From a virus (taxonomy: Duplodnaviria > Heunggongvirae > Uroviricota > Caudoviricetes): DNA of 12,570 nt. The notes under the pieces were generated by a model. That model did not search any database. It was not told the DNA's origin and was given only the letters and a program-made list of their open reading frames with translations. The position numbers and the translations under genes are program-made. The stretch is from positions 1-12,570 of IMG/VR virus record IMGVR_UViG_2513237361_000007; one strand, 5' to 3'. Within the stretch, counting starts at the first letter, position 1. Every line of letters begins with the position of its first letter. Positions 1 through 11,635 of this stretch are shown here, in pieces.

Positions 1-108
1 TTACTTCCGCTTATTCAGCCAGCTCACGATCAGGCTGGCGAGAATGCCAGCAATGACCGGAGCCGCTAAATCGTGCCAGAAGGCCATGCCTAACTGCGCG
101 AGCGTCAT
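1..108 (-). CDS. Ldr-family type I toxin peptide, 35 aa (MTLAQLGMAFWHDLAAPVIAGILASLIVSWLNKRK)
   Basis: Hand translation of the minus strand: ATG at 108-106, stop at 3-1. The peptide closely resembles E. coli Ldr toxins (LdrD-like FWHDLAAP...NKRK) as I recall them; single hydrophobic helix with basic C-terminus. Too short for the ORF track. Confidence 0.5.
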   Translation of the reverse strand: MTLAQLGMAFWHDLAAPVIAGILASLIVSWLNKRK

Positions 109-149
109 ATAGCCGCCTGTGTTGTAATGACAACGTTTCGCGGCTATTC

Positions 150-494
150 TTGAATGGGCTAGAGTCCAGATATGTCATTCAGCGAGGAGCTAATGCCAAT
201 GGTGCATGGATACGCTGGTCAGATGGTGCAATAGAAGTATTTGGAACCGGTGGATCTAATGATAATGGACTGGCTAAAGTTGTTTACCCAATTGCACTGC
301 CTAAACTTTCACGTTTTATCAGTATCGCGGAAAGAATAAGAACGGATTACGAGAGCACACCTAATAATGTTCACGTTTCAATGATCGTGGATGATCAGGT
401 AACAAATACCGGCTTTTATGCCCGCTGCCAGATGTACGACGGCAGACCATCATCAAATGCTTTTTCCTGGAGGGTTTATTGTGCGCCTGTTTAA
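150..494 (+). pseudogene. Tail-fibre C-terminal cassette fragment, 5'-truncated
   Basis: ORF begins at TTG and the frame stays open back to position 57 with no ATG. It lacks the conserved PWP...CNG...AYP motif seen at the start of the opposite cassette. Position and orientation mirror the alternative cassette; assignment is by context, not recognised homology. Confidence 0.4.
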
Positions 495-2472: not shown

Positions 2473-2490
2473 TGTGTGAATAACGGTACA
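2473..2490 (+). promoter_or_regulatory. Candidate Ogr-dependent late promoter element (TGT-N12-ACA) upstream of FI
   Basis: TGTGTGAATAACGGTACA fits the TGT-N12-ACA dyad described for P2/P4 late promoters, about 75 bp upstream of the FI start. No transcript start can be determined from sequence. Confidence 0.35.
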
Positions 2491-2566: not shown

Positions 2567-3740
2567 ATGGCTCAGGATTACCACCACGGGGTGCGCGTTG
2601 TTGAAGTCAACGAAGGCACCCGATCCATTACCACGGTGAGCACCGCCATCGTGGGTATGGTCTGCACGGGCGATGATGCCGATGCAAAAATGTTTCCTCT
2701 TAATAAACCCGTGCTGATCACTGATGTGCTGACTGCCAGCGGTAAAGCGGGTGAGTCCGGCACACTGGCCCGTTCGCTGGACGCCATTGCTGACCAGGCA
2801 AAACCCGTGACCGTTGTTGTGCGTGTACCGCAGGGTGAAACGGAAGAAGAAACCACGACCAATATCATCGGAGCAGTGACCGCTGAAGGTAAAAAAACAA
2901 GGCATGAAAGCCCTGTTATCTGCCCAGTCACTGCTCGGCGTTAAACCGCGCATTCTCGGCGTGCCAGGCCACGACACCAAGGCGGTAGCTACTGAGTTGC
3001 TGAGCGTGGCGCAAAGCCTGCGTGGGTTTGCTTACCTGTCAGCGTATGGCTGCAAGACAGTGCAGGAGGCGATCGCTTACCGTGAAAACTTCAGCCAGCG
3101 CGAAGGAATGCTGATCTGGCCCGACTTTACTGGCTGGGACACGGTGCTGAATGCCGAAGCAACGGCATATGCCACCGCCCGTGCGCTTGGTCTGCGTGCC
3201 AAAATTGATGAGCAGACTGGGTGGCACAAAAGCCTGTCCAACGTGGGCGTGAACGGTGTCACCGGAATTTCTGCAGATGTGTTCTGGGATCTGCAGGACC
3301 CGGCAACCGATGCAGGTCTGCTGAACCAGAACGACGTCACCACGCTTGTGCGTAAAGACGGTTTCCGCTTCTGGGGTTCCCGCTGCCTGAGTGATGACCC
3401 GCTCTTTGCCTTCGAAAACTACACCCGCACGGCGCAGGTGCTGACGGACACAATGGCAGAAGCGCACATGTGGGCAGTGGACAAACCGCTGAACCCGTCG
3501 CTGGCGCGCGACATTATCGAGGGCATCCGCGCCAAAATGCGCAGCCTGGTCAGTCAGGGGTATCTCATTGGTGGTGATTGCTGGCTGGACGAGTCGGTGA
3601 ACGACAAAGACACGCTGAAAGCCGGAAAACTCACCATCGACTACGACTACACGCCAGTGCCGCCACTTGAAAACCTGATGTTGCGTCAGCGCATCACCGA
3701 TCAGTACCTGGTGAATTTCGCCACCCAGGTCAGCGCGTAA
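2567..3740 (+). pseudogene. FI: Tail sheath protein FI, disrupted by a +1 frameshift in an A7 tract (2891-2897)
   Basis: ORF 2567-2944 encodes the FI N-terminus ([19 protein letters not shown]...) and ORF 2904-3740 the rest (…[11 protein letters not shown]…[24 protein letters not shown]), in different frames. Removing one A gives continuous ...[29 protein letters not shown]..., collinear with P2 FI as recalled. Confidence 0.85.
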
Positions 3741-3749
3741 GGGGACAAC

Positions 3750-4265
3750 ATGGCTTTACCACGCAAATTAAAACACCTGAACCTGTTTAACGACGGGAAC
3801 AACTGGCAGGGGATCGTTGAGTCGCTGACGCTGCCGAAATTCACCCGCAAATATGAGAAGTATCGCGGCGGCGGAATGCCGGGGGCAGTGGATGTGGATC
3901 TGGGGCTTGATGACAGTGCGCTGGACACAGAATTTTCCATTGGTGGTACTGAACTGCTGCTGTTTAAGCAGATGGGCAAAGCCACGGTGGATGGCATCCA
4001 GTTGCGCTTTACCGGCTCTATCCAGCGTGACGATACCGGGGAAGTGCAGGCCGTGGAGCTTGTGGTGCGTGGACGTCACAAAGAAGTGGATTCCGGTGAG
4101 TGGAAGACGGGCGAAAGCAACACCACCAAAGTGACCAGTACCAACAGCTACGCGAAGCTGACCATCAATGGTGAGGTGCTCTATGAAGTGGACCTTATCA
4201 ACATGGTGGAAATTGTGGACGGTGTGGACCTGATGGAAGCGCACCGCAACGCCCTCGGCCTCTGA
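3750..4265 (+). CDS. FII: Tail tube protein FII
   Basis: 171 aa; MALPRKLKHLNLF...GSIQRDDTGEV...NMVEIVDGVD resembles P2 gpFII and sits immediately after FI. Confidence 0.9.
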   Translation: MALPRKLKHLNLFNDGNNWQGIVESLTLPKFTRKYEKYRGGGMPGAVDVDLGLDDSALDTEFSIGGTELLLFKQMGKATVDGIQLRFTGSIQRDDTGEVQAVELVVRGRHKEVDSGEWKTGESNTTKVTSTNSYAKLTINGEVLYEVDLINMVEIVDGVDLMEAHRNALGL

Positions 4266-4319
4266 TGTATCTGAACGGCGCGGAATGCCGCGCCAGAACC
4301 TAATTTACAGGACAACAAA

Positions 4320-4622
4320 ATGAGCGATAAGCAGACTGAAAAGACCATTCAACTGGATACCCCTATCAAGCGCGGTAAAACAGAAATTACCGAAATTGTG
4401 CTGCGTAAACCGCAGTCCGGTGCGCTGCGCGGTACACGCCTGCAGGCCATTATGGATATGGATGTGAACGCGATGATGACCGTGATCCCCCGCATCTCCA
4501 GTCCGGCACTGACTGCACAGGAAATTGCAGAGATGGACCCGGCAGATCTCACTGCCATGTCGGTTGAGGTTGTCACTTTTTTGTTGAAGAAGTCGGTGCT
4601 TACCGGTTTACCGACAGCCTGA
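4320..4622 (+). CDS. E: Tail assembly chaperone E
   Basis: 100-aa ORF between FII and T containing the slippery heptamer; position and size as in the P2 FETUD operon. Confidence 0.85.
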   Translation: MSDKQTEKTIQLDTPIKRGKTEITEIVLRKPQSGALRGTRLQAIMDMDVNAMMTVIPRISSPALTAQEIAEMDPADLTAMSVEVVTFLLKKSVLTGLPTA

Positions 4623-4756
4623 CGGTTGACGATCTGGTGGCTGATATCGCCACCATCTTTCACTGGCCGCCATCCGTTACTGACGTTATGCCGCTGACCG
4701 AAGTGCTGGAATGGCGGTATAAAGCGATTCAGAGAAGCGGGGCCAACGATGAGTGA
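4320..4756 (+). CDS. E': E+E' extended chaperone made by -1 programmed frameshift at 4577-4583
   Basis: After a -1 slip at T_TTT_TTG the -1 frame stays open for 58 codons (…VEEVGAYRFTDSLTVDDLVADIATIFHWPPSVTDVMPLTEVLEWRYKAIQRSGANDE) to TGA 4754-4756, overlapping the T start at 4749. Confidence 0.7.
4577..4583 (+). other. Slippery heptamer TTTTTTG for the E/E' -1 frameshift
   Basis: In-frame as T TTT TTG (codons ACT TTT TTG); same heptamer reported for P2 E/E'. Confidence 0.7.
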
Positions 4757-7700
4757 TAATAACCTGCGCCTGCAGGTCATTCTTAATGCGGTTGACAAAC
4801 TCACCCGCCCATTCCGTGCTGCACAGGCCAGTTCGAAAGAGCTGGCTGGCGCAATTCAGAATACCCGAAACAGCCTCAAAGAATTGAATAAGCAGGCTGG
4901 CAGAATTGATGAATTTCGCAAGACGCGCTCGCAACTAGCCATAACAGCCAACAACCTGAACGCAGCCCGCGAAGAGGCGGCAAAACTCGCCACACAATTT
5001 GCTGCCACTAACAGGCCAACCGCCGCGCAGGCAAAGTTATTCAGTCAGGCCAAAACACGAGTACAGGAACTTCAGCAGACCTATAACGGCTTGTTGGGGG
5101 CGGTCCAGAGACAACGTCAGGCACTTAAAGAATCAGGGATTGATACCAGACAACTCAGTAGTGCCCAGCGAGAACTTAAGAAAAATGCTGAAGAAACAAG
5201 GCAGGCACTGGAGGGCCAGCAAAAAGCACTTAAACGTCTGGGTGAGCAACAGGCACGGATGAACGCTGCCAGAGAACAATACTCAAGACGGCTTGAAGTG
5301 CGCGATCGCATCGCAGGAGCCGGAGCCACTACCACGGCTGCAGGGCTGGCAATGGGTGCGCCAGTGATGGCGGCAGTAAAAAGCTATACCAGCATGGAAG
5401 ATGCCATGAAAGGTGTGGCAAAGCAGGTCAATGGTCTGCGTGACGATAATGGCAACCGCACTGCACGTTTTTATGAAATGCAGGATGCCATCAAGGCTGC
5501 CAGCGAACAGTTGCCGATGGAAAACGGTGCGGTGGACTTCGCTGCACTGGTTGAAGGTGGTGCGCGCATGAACGTCGCAAACCCTGACGACAGCTGGGAA
5601 GACCAGAAACGTGACCTGCTGGCCTTCGCCAGTACGGCAGCAAAGGCGGCAACAGCCTTTGAGCTGCCAGCGGATGAACTGTCAGAAAGTCTGGGGAAAA
5701 TCGCCCAGCTCTACAAAATACCTACCCGCAATATTGAACAGCTCGGCGATGCGCTGAACTATCTGGATGATAACGCCATGTCGAAAGGGGCGGACATCAT
5801 TGATGTGATGCAACGTCTGGGCGGTGTGGCTGACCGTCTGGATTATCGTAAAGCGGCGGCACTGGGTTCCACCTTTCTGACACTGGGTGCTGCGCCGGAG
5901 GTTGCAGCCAGTGCAGCAAACGCGATGGTGCGTGAATTGTCCATTGCCACCATGCAAAGCAAGAGTTTCTTTGAAGGGATGAATCTGCTGAAACTCAATC
6001 CTGAAGTGATTGAAAAGCAGATGACGAAGGATGCGATGGGAACTATCCAGCGTGTGCTGGAGAAGGTGAACGCACTGCCGCAGGACAATCGTCTGTCTGC
6101 CATGACCATGTTGTTTGGTAAAGAGTTTGGTGATGATGCAGCGAAACTGGCAAACAACCTTCCGGAACTGCAGCGCCAGCTAAAACTGACAGCGGACAAT
6201 GATGCGCTCGGTTCCATGCAGAAAGAATCCGACATCAACAAAGACTCACTTTCCGCTCAGTGGTTGCTGGTCAAAACTGGAGCGCAGAACACCTTCAGCA
6301 GCCTGGGCGAAACGCTGCGCCAGCCGCTGATGGATATTCTGTACACGGTGAAAAGCATTACGGGGGCGTTGCGCCGCTGGGTGGAAGCTAACCCGGAACT
6401 GACAGGCACACTGATGAAAGTAGCGGCTGTTGTGGCTGCGGTTACCGTAGGCCTCGGCACCTTAGCGGTGGCGCTGGCTGCAGTGCTGGGGCCGCTGGCA
6501 GTGATCCGTCTGGGATTCTCTGTGCTGGGTATCAAAACGTTACCTTCCGTTACGGCAGCAGTAACTCGAACCAGCAACGCGTTGTCCTGGCTGGCTGGCG
6601 CTCCACTGGCACTGCTGCGACGCGGGCTTGCTTCATCGGGCAACGCCGCAGGTTTACTTACTGCGCCGTTGTCGTCTTTGCGCCGCACGGCATCACTGAC
6701 GGGAAATGTCCTGAAAACTGTAGCAGGTGCGCCAGTTGCACTTTTGCGGTCTGGATTATCCGGTTTACGTGCTGTTGCTGTGATGTTTATGAATCCTCTG
6801 GCGGTACTGCGCGGTGGACTGGCAGCCGCAGGCGCGGTGCTGCGAGTGCTTGCATCTGGTCCGCTGGCGATGCTGCGCGTTGCCCTGTATGCCATATCTG
6901 GTCTGTTAGGTGCTCTGCTCAGTCCGATAGGTCTTGTGGTTACTGCACTGGCGGGCGTGGCGCTGGTTGTCTGGAAATACTGGCAACCCATTACCGCATT
7001 TCTCGGTGGCGTGGTGGAAGGATTCAAAGCGGCGGCAGGTCCCATCAGTGCAGCGTTTGAACCACTTAAGCCCGTGTTCCAGTGGATTGGCGACAAAGTG
7101 CAGGCGCTGTGGGGCTGGTTTACTGATCTGCTGACGCCTGTTAAGTCGACCTCTGCCGAACTGCAGAGCGCAGCGGCAATGGGGCGACGATTCGGGGAGG
7201 CACTGGCGGAAGGGCTGAATATGGTCATGCATCCGCTGGACTCCCTGAAATCCGGTGTTTCCTGGTTGCTGGATAAACTCGGCATTGTCAGTAAAGAGGC
7301 TGCAAAGGCGAAACTGCCGGAAAGCGTGACGCGTCAGCAACCTGCGACGGTGAATGCAGACGGTAAAGTGATGATGCCATCGGGTGGTTTTCCGTCATGG
7401 GGATATGGCTTTGCGGGGATGTATGACAGCGGCGGCTATATCCCGCGCGGGCAGTTTGGCATCGTCGGTGAAAACGGGCCGGAAATTGTCAACGGCCCGG
7501 CAAACGTGACCAGCCGGAGAAATACCGCTGCACTGGCTGCGGTTGTTGCCGGAATGATGGGCGTTGCTGCCGCGCCTGCAGAGCTTCCACCGTTACATCC
7601 TTTGGCACTTCCCGCGAAAGGCGGCGAAGCGATGGTGAGTCGTGCAGCCACTGTGCCGCCCGTTCAACGGCTTGAGGCACCGACGCAGATCATCATTCAG

Positions 7701-7826
7701 ACGCAGCCAGGACAAAGTGCGCAGGATATTGCGCGGGAGGTTGCACGCCAGCTTGATGAACGTGAACGCAGGCTGAAGGCAAAAGCCAGGAGTAACTACA
7801 GCGATCAGGGGGGATACGAAGCATGA
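4749..7826 (+). CDS. T: Tail tape measure protein T
   Basis: 1025-aa ORF with coiled-coil-like N-terminal half, a hydrophobic repeat-containing middle and a glycine-rich C-terminus; follows E/E' and overlaps U (ATGA at 7823-7826). Confidence 0.9.
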   Translation: MSDNNLRLQVILNAVDKLTRPFRAAQASSKELAGAIQNTRNSLKELNKQAGRIDEFRKTRSQLAITANNLNAAREEAAKLATQFAATNRPTAAQAKLFSQAKTRVQELQQTYNGLLGAVQRQRQALKESGIDTRQLSSAQRELKKNAEETRQALEGQQKALKRLGEQQARMNAAREQYSRRLEVRDRIAGAGATTTAAGLAMGAPVMAAVKSYTSMEDAMKGVAKQVNGLRDDNGNRTARFYEMQDAIKAASEQLPMENGAVDFAALVEGGARMNVANPDDSWEDQKRDLLAFASTAAKAATAFELPADELSESLGKIAQLYKIPTRNIEQLGDALNYLDDNAMSKGADIIDVMQRLGGVADRLDYRKAAALGSTFLTLGAAPEVAASAANAMVRELSIATMQSKSFFEGMNLLKLNPEVIEKQMTKDAMGTIQRVLEKVNALPQDNRLSAMTMLFGKEFGDDAAKLANNLPELQRQLKLTADNDALGSMQKESDINKDSLSAQWLLVKTGAQNTFSSLGETLRQPLMDILYTVKSITGALRRWVEANPELTGTLMKVAAVVAAVTVGLGTLAVALAAVLGPLAVIRLGFSVLGIKTLPSVTAAVTRTSNALSWLAGAPLALLRRGLASSGNAAGLLTAPLSSLRRTASLTGNVLKTVAGAPVALLRSGLSGLRAVAVMFMNPLAVLRGGLAAAGAVLRVLASGPLAMLRVALYAISGLLGALLSPIGLVVTALAGVALVVWKYWQPITAFLGGVVEGFKAAAGPISAAFEPLKPVFQWIGDKVQALWGWFTDLLTPVKSTSAELQSAAAMGRRFGEALAEGLNMVMHPLDSLKSGVSWLLDKLGIVSKEAAKAKLPESVTRQQPATVNADGKVMMPSGGFPSWGYGFAGMYDSGGYIPRGQFGIVGENGPEIVNGPANVTSRRNTAALAAVVAGMMGVAAAPAELPPLHPLALPAKGGEAMVSRAATVPPVQRLEAPTQIIIQTQPGQSAQDIAREVARQLDERERRLKAKARSNYSDQGGYEA
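6603..6890 (+). repeat. Five degenerate tandem repeats of about 63-66 bp inside T, encoding P(L/V)AxLRxGL-type segments
   Basis: Related units begin near 6603, 6666, 6733, 6795 and 6861 (e.g. CCACTGGCACTGCTGCGACGCGGGCTT, CCAGTTGCACTTTTGCGGTCTGGATTA, CCTCTGGCGGTACTGCGCGGTGGACTG, CCGCTGGCGATGCTGCGCGTTGCCCTG). Confidence 0.5.
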
Positions 7827-8308
7827 TGATGGTGCTGGGATTGTACGTGTTTATGCTGCGCACCGTGCCGTATCAGGAGCTGCAGTATCAACGCAGCTGG
7901 CGACATGCGGCAAACAGCCGGGTAAACCGACGTCCGTCCACGCAGTTTCTGGGACCGGACAACGACATGCTGACGCTTTCCGGTGTTCTTATGCCGGAGA
8001 TAACAGGTGGCAGGCTGTCGTTGCTGGCACTGGAGCAGATGGCAGAACAGGGGAAAGCATGGCCCCTGATTGAAGGCAGCGGCACGATTTATGGCATGTA
8101 TGTGATTGAGGGACTGAATCAGACTAAAACGGAGTTTTTCCGCGACGGTATGCCGCGCCGGATTGAGTTCACCCTGTCGCTCAAAAGGGTGGATGAATCA
8201 TTGTCCGATATGTTCGGTGATCTCAGTGCGCAACTGAATAATCTGCAGGACACGGCAACGTCTGCCTTAAGCGATATCAGTAAAACGGTGGGAGGGCTGC
8301 TGTCGTGA
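7823..8308 (+). CDS. U: Tail protein U
   Basis: 161 aa; MMMVLGLYVFMLRTVPYQELQYQRSWRH...FRDGMPRRIEFTLSLKRVDE is near-collinear with P2 gpU as recalled. Confidence 0.9.
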   Translation: MMMVLGLYVFMLRTVPYQELQYQRSWRHAANSRVNRRPSTQFLGPDNDMLTLSGVLMPEITGGRLSLLALEQMAEQGKAWPLIEGSGTIYGMYVIEGLNQTKTEFFRDGMPRRIEFTLSLKRVDESLSDMFGDLSAQLNNLQDTATSALSDISKTVGGLLS

Positions 8309-9405
8309 ATTTCAGCTCTGAACTGCTTAACAAAGGCAACAAAACTCCCGCATTCAGCATCAGTATTGAGGGCAGGGATATCACCACTGTGCTGGATAAC
8401 CGCCTGATGAGTCTGACGCTGACGGATAACCGGGGCTTTGAAGCGGACCAGCTTGATCTGGAGCTGGACGACGCCGATGGAAAAATAGCGCTGCCGCGCC
8501 GTGGTGCGGTCATTACGCTGGCGCTGGGCTGGAAGGGGCAGCCGCTTTTCCCGAAAGGGGCATTCACGGTGGACGAGATTGAACACACTGGCGCACCGGA
8601 CCGCCTGACTATCCGGGCGCGAAGTGCTGATTTTCGGGAAACGCTGAATACCCGCCGTGAAAAGTCGTGGCACAAGACCACTGTCGGGGAAGTGGTGAAG
8701 GAAATAGCTGTGCGGCACAAACTGAAGATGGCACTGGGTAAAGACCTGTCAGATAAACCCGTGGAACATATAGACCAGACTAATGAGAGTGACGGCAGTT
8801 TTCTGATGCGGCTGGCGCGCCAGTACGGTGCTATTGCGTCGGTGAAAAATGGCAATCTGTTATTCATCCGGCAGGGACAGGGTAAAAGCGCCAGCGGTAA
8901 ACCACTACCGGTTATCACTATCACACGTAAGGACGGCGACAGTCACCGCTTTACCCTGGCAGATCGCGGAGCCTACACGGGCGTAATTGCCAGCTGGTTG
9001 CATACCCGCGAACCCGCGAAGAAAGAAAGCACCACGGTGAAGCGTAAGCGCAGGACTAAGAAGCAGAAGAAAGAGCCGGAAGCGAAGCAGGGCGATTACC
9101 TGGTGGGTACAGATGAAAACGTGCTGGTACTTAATCGCACTTATGCCAACCGGAGCAACGCTGAACGGGCTGCGAAAATGCAGTGGGAACGCCTGCAACG
9201 CGGCGTTGCGTCATTCTCGCTACAACTGGCGGAAGGGCGGGCAGAACTCTATACGGAAATGCCAGTGAAAGTCAGTGGCTTTAAACAGCCGATAGATGAT
9301 GCGGAATGGACCATTACGACTCTGACACATACCGTCAGCCCGGATAATGGTTTTACGACCAGTCTGGAGCTTGAAGTGAGGATTGATGATTTCAAAATGG
9401 AATGA
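8305..9405 (+). CDS. D: Tail protein D (late control gene D family)
   Basis: 366-aa ORF after U with GTGA start/stop overlap; contains a Lys/Arg-rich low-complexity segment (KRKRRTKKQKKEPEAKQ). Confidence 0.85.
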   Translation: MNFSSELLNKGNKTPAFSISIEGRDITTVLDNRLMSLTLTDNRGFEADQLDLELDDADGKIALPRRGAVITLALGWKGQPLFPKGAFTVDEIEHTGAPDRLTIRARSADFRETLNTRREKSWHKTTVGEVVKEIAVRHKLKMALGKDLSDKPVEHIDQTNESDGSFLMRLARQYGAIASVKNGNLLFIRQGQGKSASGKPLPVITITRKDGDSHRFTLADRGAYTGVIASWLHTREPAKKESTTVKRKRRTKKQKKEPEAKQGDYLVGTDENVLVLNRTYANRSNAERAAKMQWERLQRGVASFSLQLAEGRAELYTEMPVKVSGFKQPIDDAEWTITTLTHTVSPDNGFTTSLELEVRIDDFKME

Positions 9406-9495
9406 TTCTTCGCAATGGAGAACTTTTAAGTTTGCAAAATGGAATAATGCGGTATCATTATTGTGAATTTAGCAAAAATGGGGAGAACTCGAAAA

Positions 9496-9714
9496 ATGAT
9501 GATTTGCCCACTGTGTGGAAGTGCCGCCCATACTCGCAGCAGTTTTCAGGTATCTTCATTGACCAAAGAGCGTTACAACCAGTGCCAGAACATTAACTGC
9601 AGCCATACTTTTGTTACCCATGAAACTTTTGTTCGTTCGATTGCAACGCCAAAAGAGTCAAATCCGGTTCAGCCGCATCCAATGAAATCAGGACAGGTGG
9701 CGCTCTCTCTTTGA
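9496..9714 (+). CDS. ogr: Ogr/Delta-family zinc-finger late transcription activator
   Basis: MMICPLCGSAAHTRSS...KERYNQCQNINCSHTF...RPHP with Cys4 CxxC...CxxxxC arrangement like P2 Ogr. Start at ATG 9496 (GGGGAG at 9480-9485) preferred over ATG 9463. Confidence 0.85.
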   Translation: MMICPLCGSAAHTRSSFQVSSLTKERYNQCQNINCSHTFVTHETFVRSIATPKESNPVQPHPMKSGQVALSL

Positions 9715-9800
9715 CTCTGCCGCCAATTTGTCGCCATCGTTAAAAAACACTGCTTCTAACATCATGATTTTAAAAGGCATAAATTTTAGGCAACAAAAAA

Positions 9801-9838
9801 CCCATCAACCTTGAACCTAAATGGCGGGGTTGATGGGC
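9801..9838 (-). terminator. Rho-independent terminator downstream of ybjL
   Basis: Inverted repeat CCCATCAACC (9801-9810) / GGTTGATGGG (9828-9837); on the minus strand the hairpin is followed by TTTTTTGTTG (complement of 9791-9800). Confidence 0.6.
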
Positions 9839-9949
9839 TCCACAAAATGGGGACATCAAAGAAAAGCAGTGGCACTAATTAAGACTGATACCCTGAAGAA
9901 AAGTTCTGCGGTTGTACAAAAAAATTTCATTTTTAGGGCAACTTCAGTT

Positions 9950-11635
9950 TTATCCGAGTCCGGGCCATACCATCACAATGATTGTCCCTGCCAGTGTCAG
10001 CAGTACGTTAGCTATTGCATAAGTGCCCGCATAGCCCAGCGCCGGGATGTTACTGCGGGCTGTATCACTGATGATCTCCATTGCCGGTGCGCAGGTTCGT
10101 GCGCCCATCATTGCGCCGAATAACAGTGCGCGGTTCATACGCAATACGTAAGCACCGAACAGGAAGCAGATAACAACGGGCACCAGACTGACAATCAATC
10201 CGGCAATCAACATCTGACCGCCAATCGCGCCCAGGCCGTTATTGATGCCGCTACCGGCGCTTAAACCAACACCCGCCATAAACACCATCAAACCAAACTC
10301 TTTCACCATACTTAACGCACCCTGCGGAATATAGCCGAAGGTCGGGTGGTTAGCGCGCATAAAGCCCAGCATAATGCCAGCGAATAACAATCCGGCAGCG
10401 TTACCCATGCCAAAACTGAAAGTGCTGAACTGGAAGGTAATCATCCCGATCATCAGGCCTATAACAAAGAATGCGCAGAATGCCAGCAAGTCGGTGACCT
10501 GGCTGTGAATCGAAATAAAGCCGATACGGTCAGCGATGGTCTTCACACGGCGGGCATCGCCGCTCACCTGCAAAACGTCACCTTTGTTAAGCACTACGTT
10601 ATCGTCAATTGGCATCTCGATCTGACTGCGGATCACGCGGTTAAGGAAGCAACCGTGATCGGTCAACTTCAATTGCGCCAGACGTTTACCGACGGCGTTA
10701 TGGTTTTTGACGACCACCTCTTCAGTGACAATACGCATGTCGAGAAGGTCACGATCAAAAACTTCTTTACCGTTACGGAAGCTGGGATCGAGTCGGGCGT
10801 GGGCATCGGGATATCCTACCAACGCTATTTCATCGCCCATTTGCAACACGGCGTCACCATCCGGATTTGCCAGAATCCCGTTACGACGGATACGTTCAAT
10901 ATAGCAACCGGTCTGTCGATAAATACCCAATTCACGCAAGTTCTTGCCGTCGGCCCAGGCGACCAGTTCCGGCCCGACTCGGTAAGCGCGAATCACCGGC
11001 AGATAGACTTTGCGGCTGGCGTCGGTGTCCAGACCTCGCTCACGAGCGATTTGCTGGGCGCTGGTCTGTAAGTCCTGATGCTGTAACTTGGGCAGGTAAC
11101 GCGCTCCGACAATCAGGCTCACCAGACCGATCAAATAGGTTAATGCATACCCAAGGCTTAAATTATCCAGTGCCGCGGAGAGCTGCCCGCTTTCTATACC
11201 AGAGTGGCGTAACGTATCGCCCGCACCGACCAGAACCGGCGTCGATGTCATGGAGCCAGCCAACATACCGGCCGTCAGGCCAATGTCCCAGCCAAACAGC
11301 TTACCCAAACCTAAGGCGATCAACAGCGCACTACCGACCATTACCAGCGCTAACATTAGGTAATTTTTCCCATCGCGGAAAAAAATGGAAAAAAAGTTGG
11401 GTCCGGCTTCGACCCCGACGCAGAAAATAAACAGCATAAAGCCAAGATTAAGCGCGTCGGTGTTAATACTGAAATGTTGTTGACCTAATAATAGCGATAC
11501 GACTAAAACGCCAATGGAATTACCCAGTTGGATTGAACCAAGTCGTAATTTTCCGAGACATAGCCCAAGCGCGAGGACCACGAATAATAACAGAATGTAA
11601 TTCCCATTTAACAATTCGGCGACGTTTATATTCAC
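9950..11635 (-). CDS. ybjL: YbjL putative transporter (AAE family, with TrkA-C/RCK_C domains)
   Basis: 561-aa polytopic membrane protein starting [33 protein letters not shown]; matches E. coli YbjL as recalled, with conserved neighbours ybjM and grxA. Confidence 0.9.

Follow-up and report, generated by a model that had tools for sequence, protein, structure and literature searches.

The locus analysed here raises the question of whether a late-transcription activator gene situated at the host boundary of an apparently truncated prophage is intact, how it would be expressed and on which promoters its product could act. The window, i.e., the whole stretch of DNA of 12,570 nucleotides, matches contig AEME01000001.1 of assembly GCA_000208565.2 (a 2011 draft consisting of one 4.81-Mb contig) at 100%, and the host is Escherichia sp. 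TW09308, a freshwater isolate of cryptic clade V. Our answer is that 9496-9714 is very probably ogr (named B in phage 186) of a 186-like prophage of the P2 family (Peduoviridae) that resides in the 3' end of rybB and the left part of which is missing in the assembly. The first-pass annotation of this DNA had described an intact orphan ogr at the prophage-host junction of a defective prophage, the product of which could activate late promoters of other elements in the same cell; its observation is confirmed, and its interpretation, although largely right, is partly supported, as discussed below.

The ogr gene and its promoter

9496-9714, plus strand: ogr, 72 codons plus TGA, late-transcription activator of the Ogr/Delta Cys4 zinc-finger family
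9431-9458, plus strand: predicted ogr promoter, TTTGCA at 9431-9436 (-35), 16 nt, TATCAT at 9453-9458 (-10)
9480-9485, plus strand: Shine-Dalgarno-like GGGGAG, read from the sequence

The start codon of ogr is located at 9496 (ATGATG...) and the 72-residue product, MMICPLCGSAAHTRSSFQVSSLTKERYNQCQNINCSHTFVTHETFVRSIATPKESNPVQPHPMKSGQVALSL, carries its cysteines in the arrangement C4-X2-C7-X22-C30-X4-C35. The interval 9406-9714 that had been assigned to the gene is correct at its end, which is the ogr stop codon, whereas its start, 9406, marks the beginning of the D-ogr spacer immediately behind the stop codon of D. The earlier description of a complete gene with a Cys4 motif was fully borne out: the 72-aa open reading frame matched the Pfam family Ogr_Delta (PF04606) with 78 bits (cut-off 26.3; E = 5e-22) over profile positions 2-47 of 47, and it aligned without gaps over 72 of 72 residues both with P2 Ogr (51% identity) and with 186 B (54% identity). 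In an alignment of 69 distinct homologues, taken from 80 species-representative genomes and the reference loci, all 29 positions of at least 95% conservation were kept in the window protein, which also matched the consensus in every column of at least 80% conservation; the four cysteine columns were 99-100% Cys among these homologues. Moreover, E. coli WAT (L001, full-length) and two other Escherichia species (L005 and L006, included with their right halves) carry prophages at this chromosomal site whose Ogr is 100% identical, with only one or two synonymous changes at the DNA level, and the public annotation of the identical protein reads 'ogr/Delta-like zinc finger family protein'. The profile match, the gapless alignments with P2 and 186, the conserved positions and the identical copies make the identification as an intact ogr secure, and as far as its sequence tells, the gene is indistinguishable from functional copies. 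The gene is already on record and its function is already known. In about 75 of the 83 loci compared, the gene immediately before the ogr homologue is D, and ogr is the last gene of the late region, after D and before attR; the order D-ogr-att is found in P2 and 186 as well.

With regard to transcription, TTGCAA at 9432-9437 had been proposed as part of a plausible ogr promoter. The promoter is indeed plausible and aligns with 186 pB, but TTTGCA at 9431-9436 represents the better register of the -35 hexamer. The two hexamers share 9 of 12 positions with the consensus in a consensus scan, a match that is by itself at chance level (one found versus 1.3 expected in shuffled sequences), and the promoter call therefore rests on comparative evidence. 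The annotated pB of phage 186 (NC_001317) reads TTCACA-17-TATCAT, is described as 'repressed by CI' and has two CI sites. The window D-ogr spacer aligns with this promoter, the -10 hexamer TATCAT being identical and located in the same columns and the -35 hexamer being related, albeit the spacing is 16 nt as compared to 17 nt in 186 and TTTGCA is the weaker hexamer. Furthermore, among 23 D-ogr spacers from different Enterobacteriaceae species, whose Ogr proteins are 62-90% identical to the window Ogr, the block GTATCATTATTGCGA is nearly invariant (window version GTATCATTATTGTGA, 9452-9466) and GTTC..A of the -35 region is also conserved, while the remaining spacer drifts. Judged from these alignments, the predicted promoter is of the sigma-70 type and homologous to 186 pB, and transcription of ogr is predicted to start near 9465. 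Phage P2 proved too diverged to serve as reference for the D-ogr spacer as well as for the FI upstream spacer, and phage 186 was suited instead.

The CI operator of 186, ATTCAC-N5-GTGAAT, has a degenerate counterpart in the window ogr promoter, namely GTTTGC-AAAAT-GGAAT. The operator-like repeat CATTTGGGTAC from the immunity region of an intact relative was not found in the ogr promoter, and a single 9-mer, about the level of chance, is common to the promoter and the CI operator motif of this relative. As to translation, the ribosome-binding site previously rated as good is present in the form of GGGGAG, but at a distance of 10 nt from the ATG it is usable or adequate rather than good; a purine-rich block is conserved at the same place in the D-ogr spacers of relatives.

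The GTATCATTATTGCGA block deserves a separate remark. It comprises the -10 hexamer and 9 nt downstream of it, is found about 35-50 nt upstream of ogr in the loci L007-L052 from more than 20 species, and is flanked by dyads, e.g., CATTATTG/AATAATG and GAGAAC-N5-GTTCTC. Since the block is near-invariant across genera while the Ogr proteins and the immunity regions differ, it might, beyond its part as a promoter element, be bound by a conserved regulator of the late switch that has yet to be described.

The late promoter of FI and the action of Ogr

2473-2490, plus strand: TGT-N12-ACA dyad, predicted Ogr site of the FI (PF) late promoter, called from positional conservation
2567-3740, plus strand: tail sheath gene FI, frameshifted, with open reading frames at 2567-2944 and 2904-3740 (125 and 278 aa)
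3750-9405, plus strand: late tail operon with FII 3750-4265, E 4320-4622, E' 4637-4756, T 4749-7826, U 7823-8308 and D 8305-9405 (from gene calls, Pfam and open reading frames)

The TGT-N12-ACA element upstream of FI, which the first-pass annotation had named as a local target of Ogr, was located at 2473-2490, where it starts at -94 and is centred at a distance of 85 nt from the FI ATG. Among 63 distinct related FI upstream regions, 57 had a perfect TGT-N12-ACA that starts 87-94 nt before the FI ATG, and the inner 12 nt of these sites vary freely; by simple arithmetic, about 3.5% of random 160-nt stretches are expected to hold one such element. The count over the whole window, five versus 3.96 expected, is at chance level, and the other matches, no more frequent than by chance, are located within genes or next to them; this count was discarded as evidence, and the positional conservation across the 63 regions was used instead. 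In P2, the centre of the annotated pF activator site precedes FI by 83 nt and the mapped transcription start by 58 nt. Taken together, the positional conservation and the geometry shared with P2 pF identify 2473-2490 as the predicted activator site of the PF late promoter, and on the basis of the P2 annotation the site would lie about 55 bp upstream of the late transcription start.

[quoted passage not shown] By analogy, the four cysteines of the window Ogr would bind zinc, and the protein would bind the TGT-N12-ACA dyad, the centre of which precedes late promoters by about 55 bp, and would recruit RNA polymerase via its alpha subunit. We propose that ogr would be made from its own sigma-70 promoter at 9431-9458 and that transcription from PF, activated at 2473-2490, would run through FI-D into ogr, giving rise to positive feedback. 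As family members cross-activate one another's late promoters, Ogr could in addition act in trans on behalf of P2-like phages or P4-like satellites; late gene expression of both P2 and P4 is promoted by P4 delta as well as by P2 ogr (PMC8628076).

The regulation of ogr in the window element may differ from that in a complete prophage. With 186 pB being repressed by CI and the remnant being devoid of cI, a constitutive ogr promoter is possible, and the promoter may be on at all times unless a homo-immune 186-like prophage elsewhere supplies CI; expression of ogr would then depend on a matching repressor elsewhere in the cell, given that the homologous 186 promoter is CI-repressed. We infer expression of ogr, activation by its product and the loss of CI repression of the 186 type.

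Ends of the prophage and competing readings

9718-9739, plus strand: tandem integrase arm-type-like repeats TGCCGCCAATTT GTCGCCATC, attR arm, just after ogr
9779-9805, no strand assigned: attR core ATAAATTTTAGGCAACAAAAAACCCAT, phage-host boundary, an imperfect duplication of about 27 bp found at both ends of the WAT prophage
9792-9870, minus strand: host sRNA gene rybB (Rfam RF00110, 106.5 bits with a gathering score of 40; K-12 annotation)
9950-11635, minus strand: host gene ybjL (aspartate:alanine antiporter family), followed by ybjM and grxA
1-165, minus strand: host DNA left of the remnant, ldrD-like toxin ORF at 1-108 and part of its leader
166-494, no strand assigned: 3' fragment (last 329 nt) of the tail-fibre gene H
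481-1827, no strand assigned: invertible tail-fibre/assembly cassette
1858-2424, no strand assigned: DNA invertase of the Hin type

The attR core lies 64 bp beyond the end of ogr and homology to prophage-free K-12 begins at 9779. The gene thus stands next to a prophage-host junction, as had been noted, but this place is the normal one in P2, in 186 and in the intact relatives. The att core overlaps the 3' end and the terminator of rybB, which codes for a sigma-E-dependent sRNA; integration rebuilds the rybB terminator at attR. The repeat pair at 9718-9739 recurs at attR and beside int at attL of the intact E. coli WAT prophage and resembles the 186 Int arm consensus YAYCGCCAYTY (NC_001317 annotation), so that integrase presumably binds there. 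Compared with all E. coli genomes, the host part of the window (ybjL, ybjM and grxA) shows an identity of about 91.3%, a level to be expected of a cryptic clade. Of 5426 complete E. coli genomes, 545 contained 80% or more of the window, so that the rybB terminator site is occupied in about 10% of them.

The left side of the element is less regular. E. coli WAT harbours a full 186-like prophage made up of related DNA (94-98% identity), which comprises int, CI, an Apl-like gene, CII, Fil, gene A for replication and the genes for head, lysis and baseplate; its CI is 33% identical to 186 CI (E = 4e-35). By contrast, genes for int, CI, replication, head, lysis and baseplate were absent from the contiguous element in the source contig, and phage homology to the WAT prophage begins abruptly at 166, in the variable 3' part of H. 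In comparison to K-12, the ldrD-like ORF at 1-108 is intact, only about 9 nt of the antisense gene rdlD are left and the leader/promoter region upstream has been lost; further left in the source contig, bcsG-F-E and bcsR-Q-A-B follow. The left join (109-170), at which 8 of 11 bases are common to both parental sequences (AGAGTCAAGAT / AGAAGCCAGAT), unites sequences that correspond to K-12 positions 3.70 Mb (bcs/ldrD) and 0.89 Mb (rybB/ybjL) in direct orientation, and no single inversion or viable deletion explains it. A break at the crossover site of the invertase was considered and rejected: the break lies about 50-60 nt inside the variable segment, and an inverted repeat matching the invertase crossover was not found at the left break. 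The second defect concerns FI, in which one extra A at about 2898/2899 causes a +1 frameshift relative to the intact 390-aa homologue from E. coli WAT (2890-2905: GGTAAAAAAACAAGGC in the window versus GGTAAAAAAAC-AGGC in the intact homologue); the extra A is located two bases after an A7 run and may reflect a sequencing error instead of a pseudogene.

Several observations on the neighbouring phage genes may be recorded here. The cassette coding for the tail-fibre C-terminus and assembly protein occurs in both orientations across genomes (L088-L096), with H being 463 or 528 aa long, which is consistent with an active host-range switch. A tail-fibre assembly protein identical to that of the window is encoded in a Mu-like prophage (L097, 8842-10772) beside effector genes of the NleG/OspG type, where the neighbouring invertase has 184 aa (188 aa in the window) and the fibre tip is an alternative one; this indicates cassette exchange between P2-like and Mu-like phages. 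The tape-measure protein T (4749-7826) comprises 1025 aa as compared to 815 aa in P2 (L003, 4851-7298), which suggests a longer tail in the phage lineage of the window. Moreover, the WAT prophage carries cargo at typical P2 hot spots (L001, 9867-11439; L085, 6204-7880 and 15318-16001), namely a gene for a PcfJ-domain protein and a small ORF between S and V, a gene for a DUF4041 protein between int and cI, and a phosphoribosyltransferase gene and a DprA-like gene near the portal gene; an anti-phage defence function of these genes is possible.

The terms 'orphan' and 'defective' used earlier for ogr and its prophage have to be qualified in the light of these data. The former is overstated, since ogr still follows the complete operon FI-FII-E-T-U-D, whereas only a D fragment precedes ogrK in K-12. 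The latter holds for this assembly with its left truncation and its FI frameshift, but both features occur in one 2011 draft only. It may be that the real chromosome of TW09308 contains a complete prophage, that the 165/166 junction and the FI frameshift are artefacts of the draft and that ogr is a normal, lysogenically repressed gene; we regard this as a possibility to be taken seriously, though not as the probable case. Both defects were encountered only in GCA_000208565.2: the shortened FI sheath product is on record in the TW09308 contig only, and the ldrD-H' junction was found in 0 of 5426 complete E. coli genomes and in none of the metagenome contigs, while the full late region was present at all seven ybjL-linked places in other assemblies that encode an identical tail-fibre assembly protein (7/7). 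The two sides of the join are repeat-prone (LDR repeat and tail-fibre variable region), where assemblers tend to break, and the loci that it unites in direct orientation are separated by 1.8 Mb on the K-12 map. Furthermore, the extra A in FI stands beside the A7 run, and an extra base next to a homopolymer is a typical context of pyrosequencing errors. Against an artefact, the microhomology of 8 of 11 bases at the join looks like illegitimate recombination rather than blunt concatenation of contigs, and the join contains zero Ns. The label 'defective prophage' hence comes down to two features unique to one early draft and needs verifying before use.

If the truncation is real, ogr could be a recently stranded and functionally irrelevant relic that is unexpressed or left without targets and has no selectable function, a reading which we consider unlikely. 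It fits with the truncated arrangement being known from a single genome and with the only target in cis driving a frameshifted and incomplete tail operon. The one or two synonymous differences from the copies in intact phages point in the same direction: with so few differences, the intactness of ogr carries no signal of selection within the remnant. Despite this, promoter, ribosome-binding site and coding sequence are all as in the intact relatives, and the stranded ogr copies of E. coli K-12 and B are reportedly transcribed and complement P2 phage from which ogr has been deleted.

Two further readings concern the DNA beyond ogr. An intrinsic terminator (hairpin plus U-tract) was not found on the plus strand between the ogr stop codon and rybB; the sole strong plus-strand hairpin after ogr is the complement of the RybB terminator, which is followed by CUCCACAAAA. 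In P2 and 186, by contrast, terminators are annotated 10-18 nt past the stop codon of ogr or B. Without a terminator with U-tract after ogr, transcripts of ogr and of the late operon would cross rybB in antisense direction and converge on ybjL. In the intact phage, CI presumably represses the ogr promoter; a stranded ogr that has lost this control could be constitutively expressed and have effects beyond the dead operon, and its transcripts running antisense through rybB could dampen RybB; this combination appears quite improbable to us. Hardly credible is the idea that ogr has been domesticated and controls host genes, or RybB via read-through antisense transcription, instead of phage genes. 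Serratia NucC, an Ogr homologue that controls host exoproteins, provides a precedent, and the lack of a terminator that sets the window apart from P2 and 186 would allow antisense transcripts across rybB. However, the intact WAT prophage is likewise without a terminator after ogr, and the presence of this layout in the intact same-site prophages makes it a phage feature and not an adaptation of the remnant; moreover, the other TGT-N12-ACA matches in the window are at chance level and a host target was not identified. Finally, the element cannot be an R-type tailocin locus, as the baseplate is missing (V, W, J and I are absent), only the last 329 nt of the fibre gene H are left and the sheath gene carries the frameshift.

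Comparison with related systems

The reading of 9496-9714 as ogr of a 186-like prophage in rybB is in accordance with its closest characterised homologue, gene B and its promoter pB of phage 186 (Eganvirus, Peduoviridae). Both genes encode Cys4 proteins of 72 aa and are the last gene after D and before att. The promoters share the -10 hexamer TATCAT and differ in the -35 hexamer (TTCACA in 186 versus TTTGCA), while the spacer can be aligned throughout. Early genes of the 186 type (CI, Apl-like, CII and Fil) are present in the intact relatives of the window element. On the other hand, a tB-type terminator follows B in 186 and none follows ogr in the window, and the attachment site of 186 is the ileY tRNA gene as compared to rybB for the window element.

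P2 ogr resembles the window gene in its length, in the spacing of its cysteines and in its place between D and att. Likewise, the geometry of the window FI site recurs in the target of P2 Ogr, an activator site with a partial dyad that precedes the pF start by about 55-58 bp. Contrarily, the D-ogr spacer of P2 is not recognisably conserved, a terminator follows right after P2 ogr, and immunity is of the C/Cox type in P2 but of the CI/Apl type in the intact relatives of the window element.

A similar gene arrangement is found in the xenorhabdicin (R-type tailocin) loci of Xenorhabdus, which contain a P2-like tail cluster ending in an ogr-family gene, as in the window; many loci of Xenorhabdus and Photorhabdus with D-ogr synteny were recovered, and ogr-type genes are mentioned in papers on Xenorhabdus tailocin loci. 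The window element differs from these in being devoid of V, W, J and I and in its truncated fibre and frameshifted sheath.

The closest situation is that of ogrK in the cryptic prophage PR-X of E. coli K-12, where a P2-like prophage has decayed but an intact 72-aa ogr persists at its attR end; stranded yet intact ogr genes are thus already known. An sRNA gene adjoins both, namely cyaR at K-12 ogrK and rybB at the window ogr. If its truncation is real, TW09308 is a natural analogue of K-12 in this respect. The two remnants differ in type and extent: PR-X, which is of the P2 type, keeps a 219-bp fragment of D (yegZ) and ogrK, about 0.6 kb, whereas the window element, which is of the 186 type, keeps about 9.6 kb, in which the tail-fibre cassette, the invertase and the PF promoter are present along with all of the FI-D operon.
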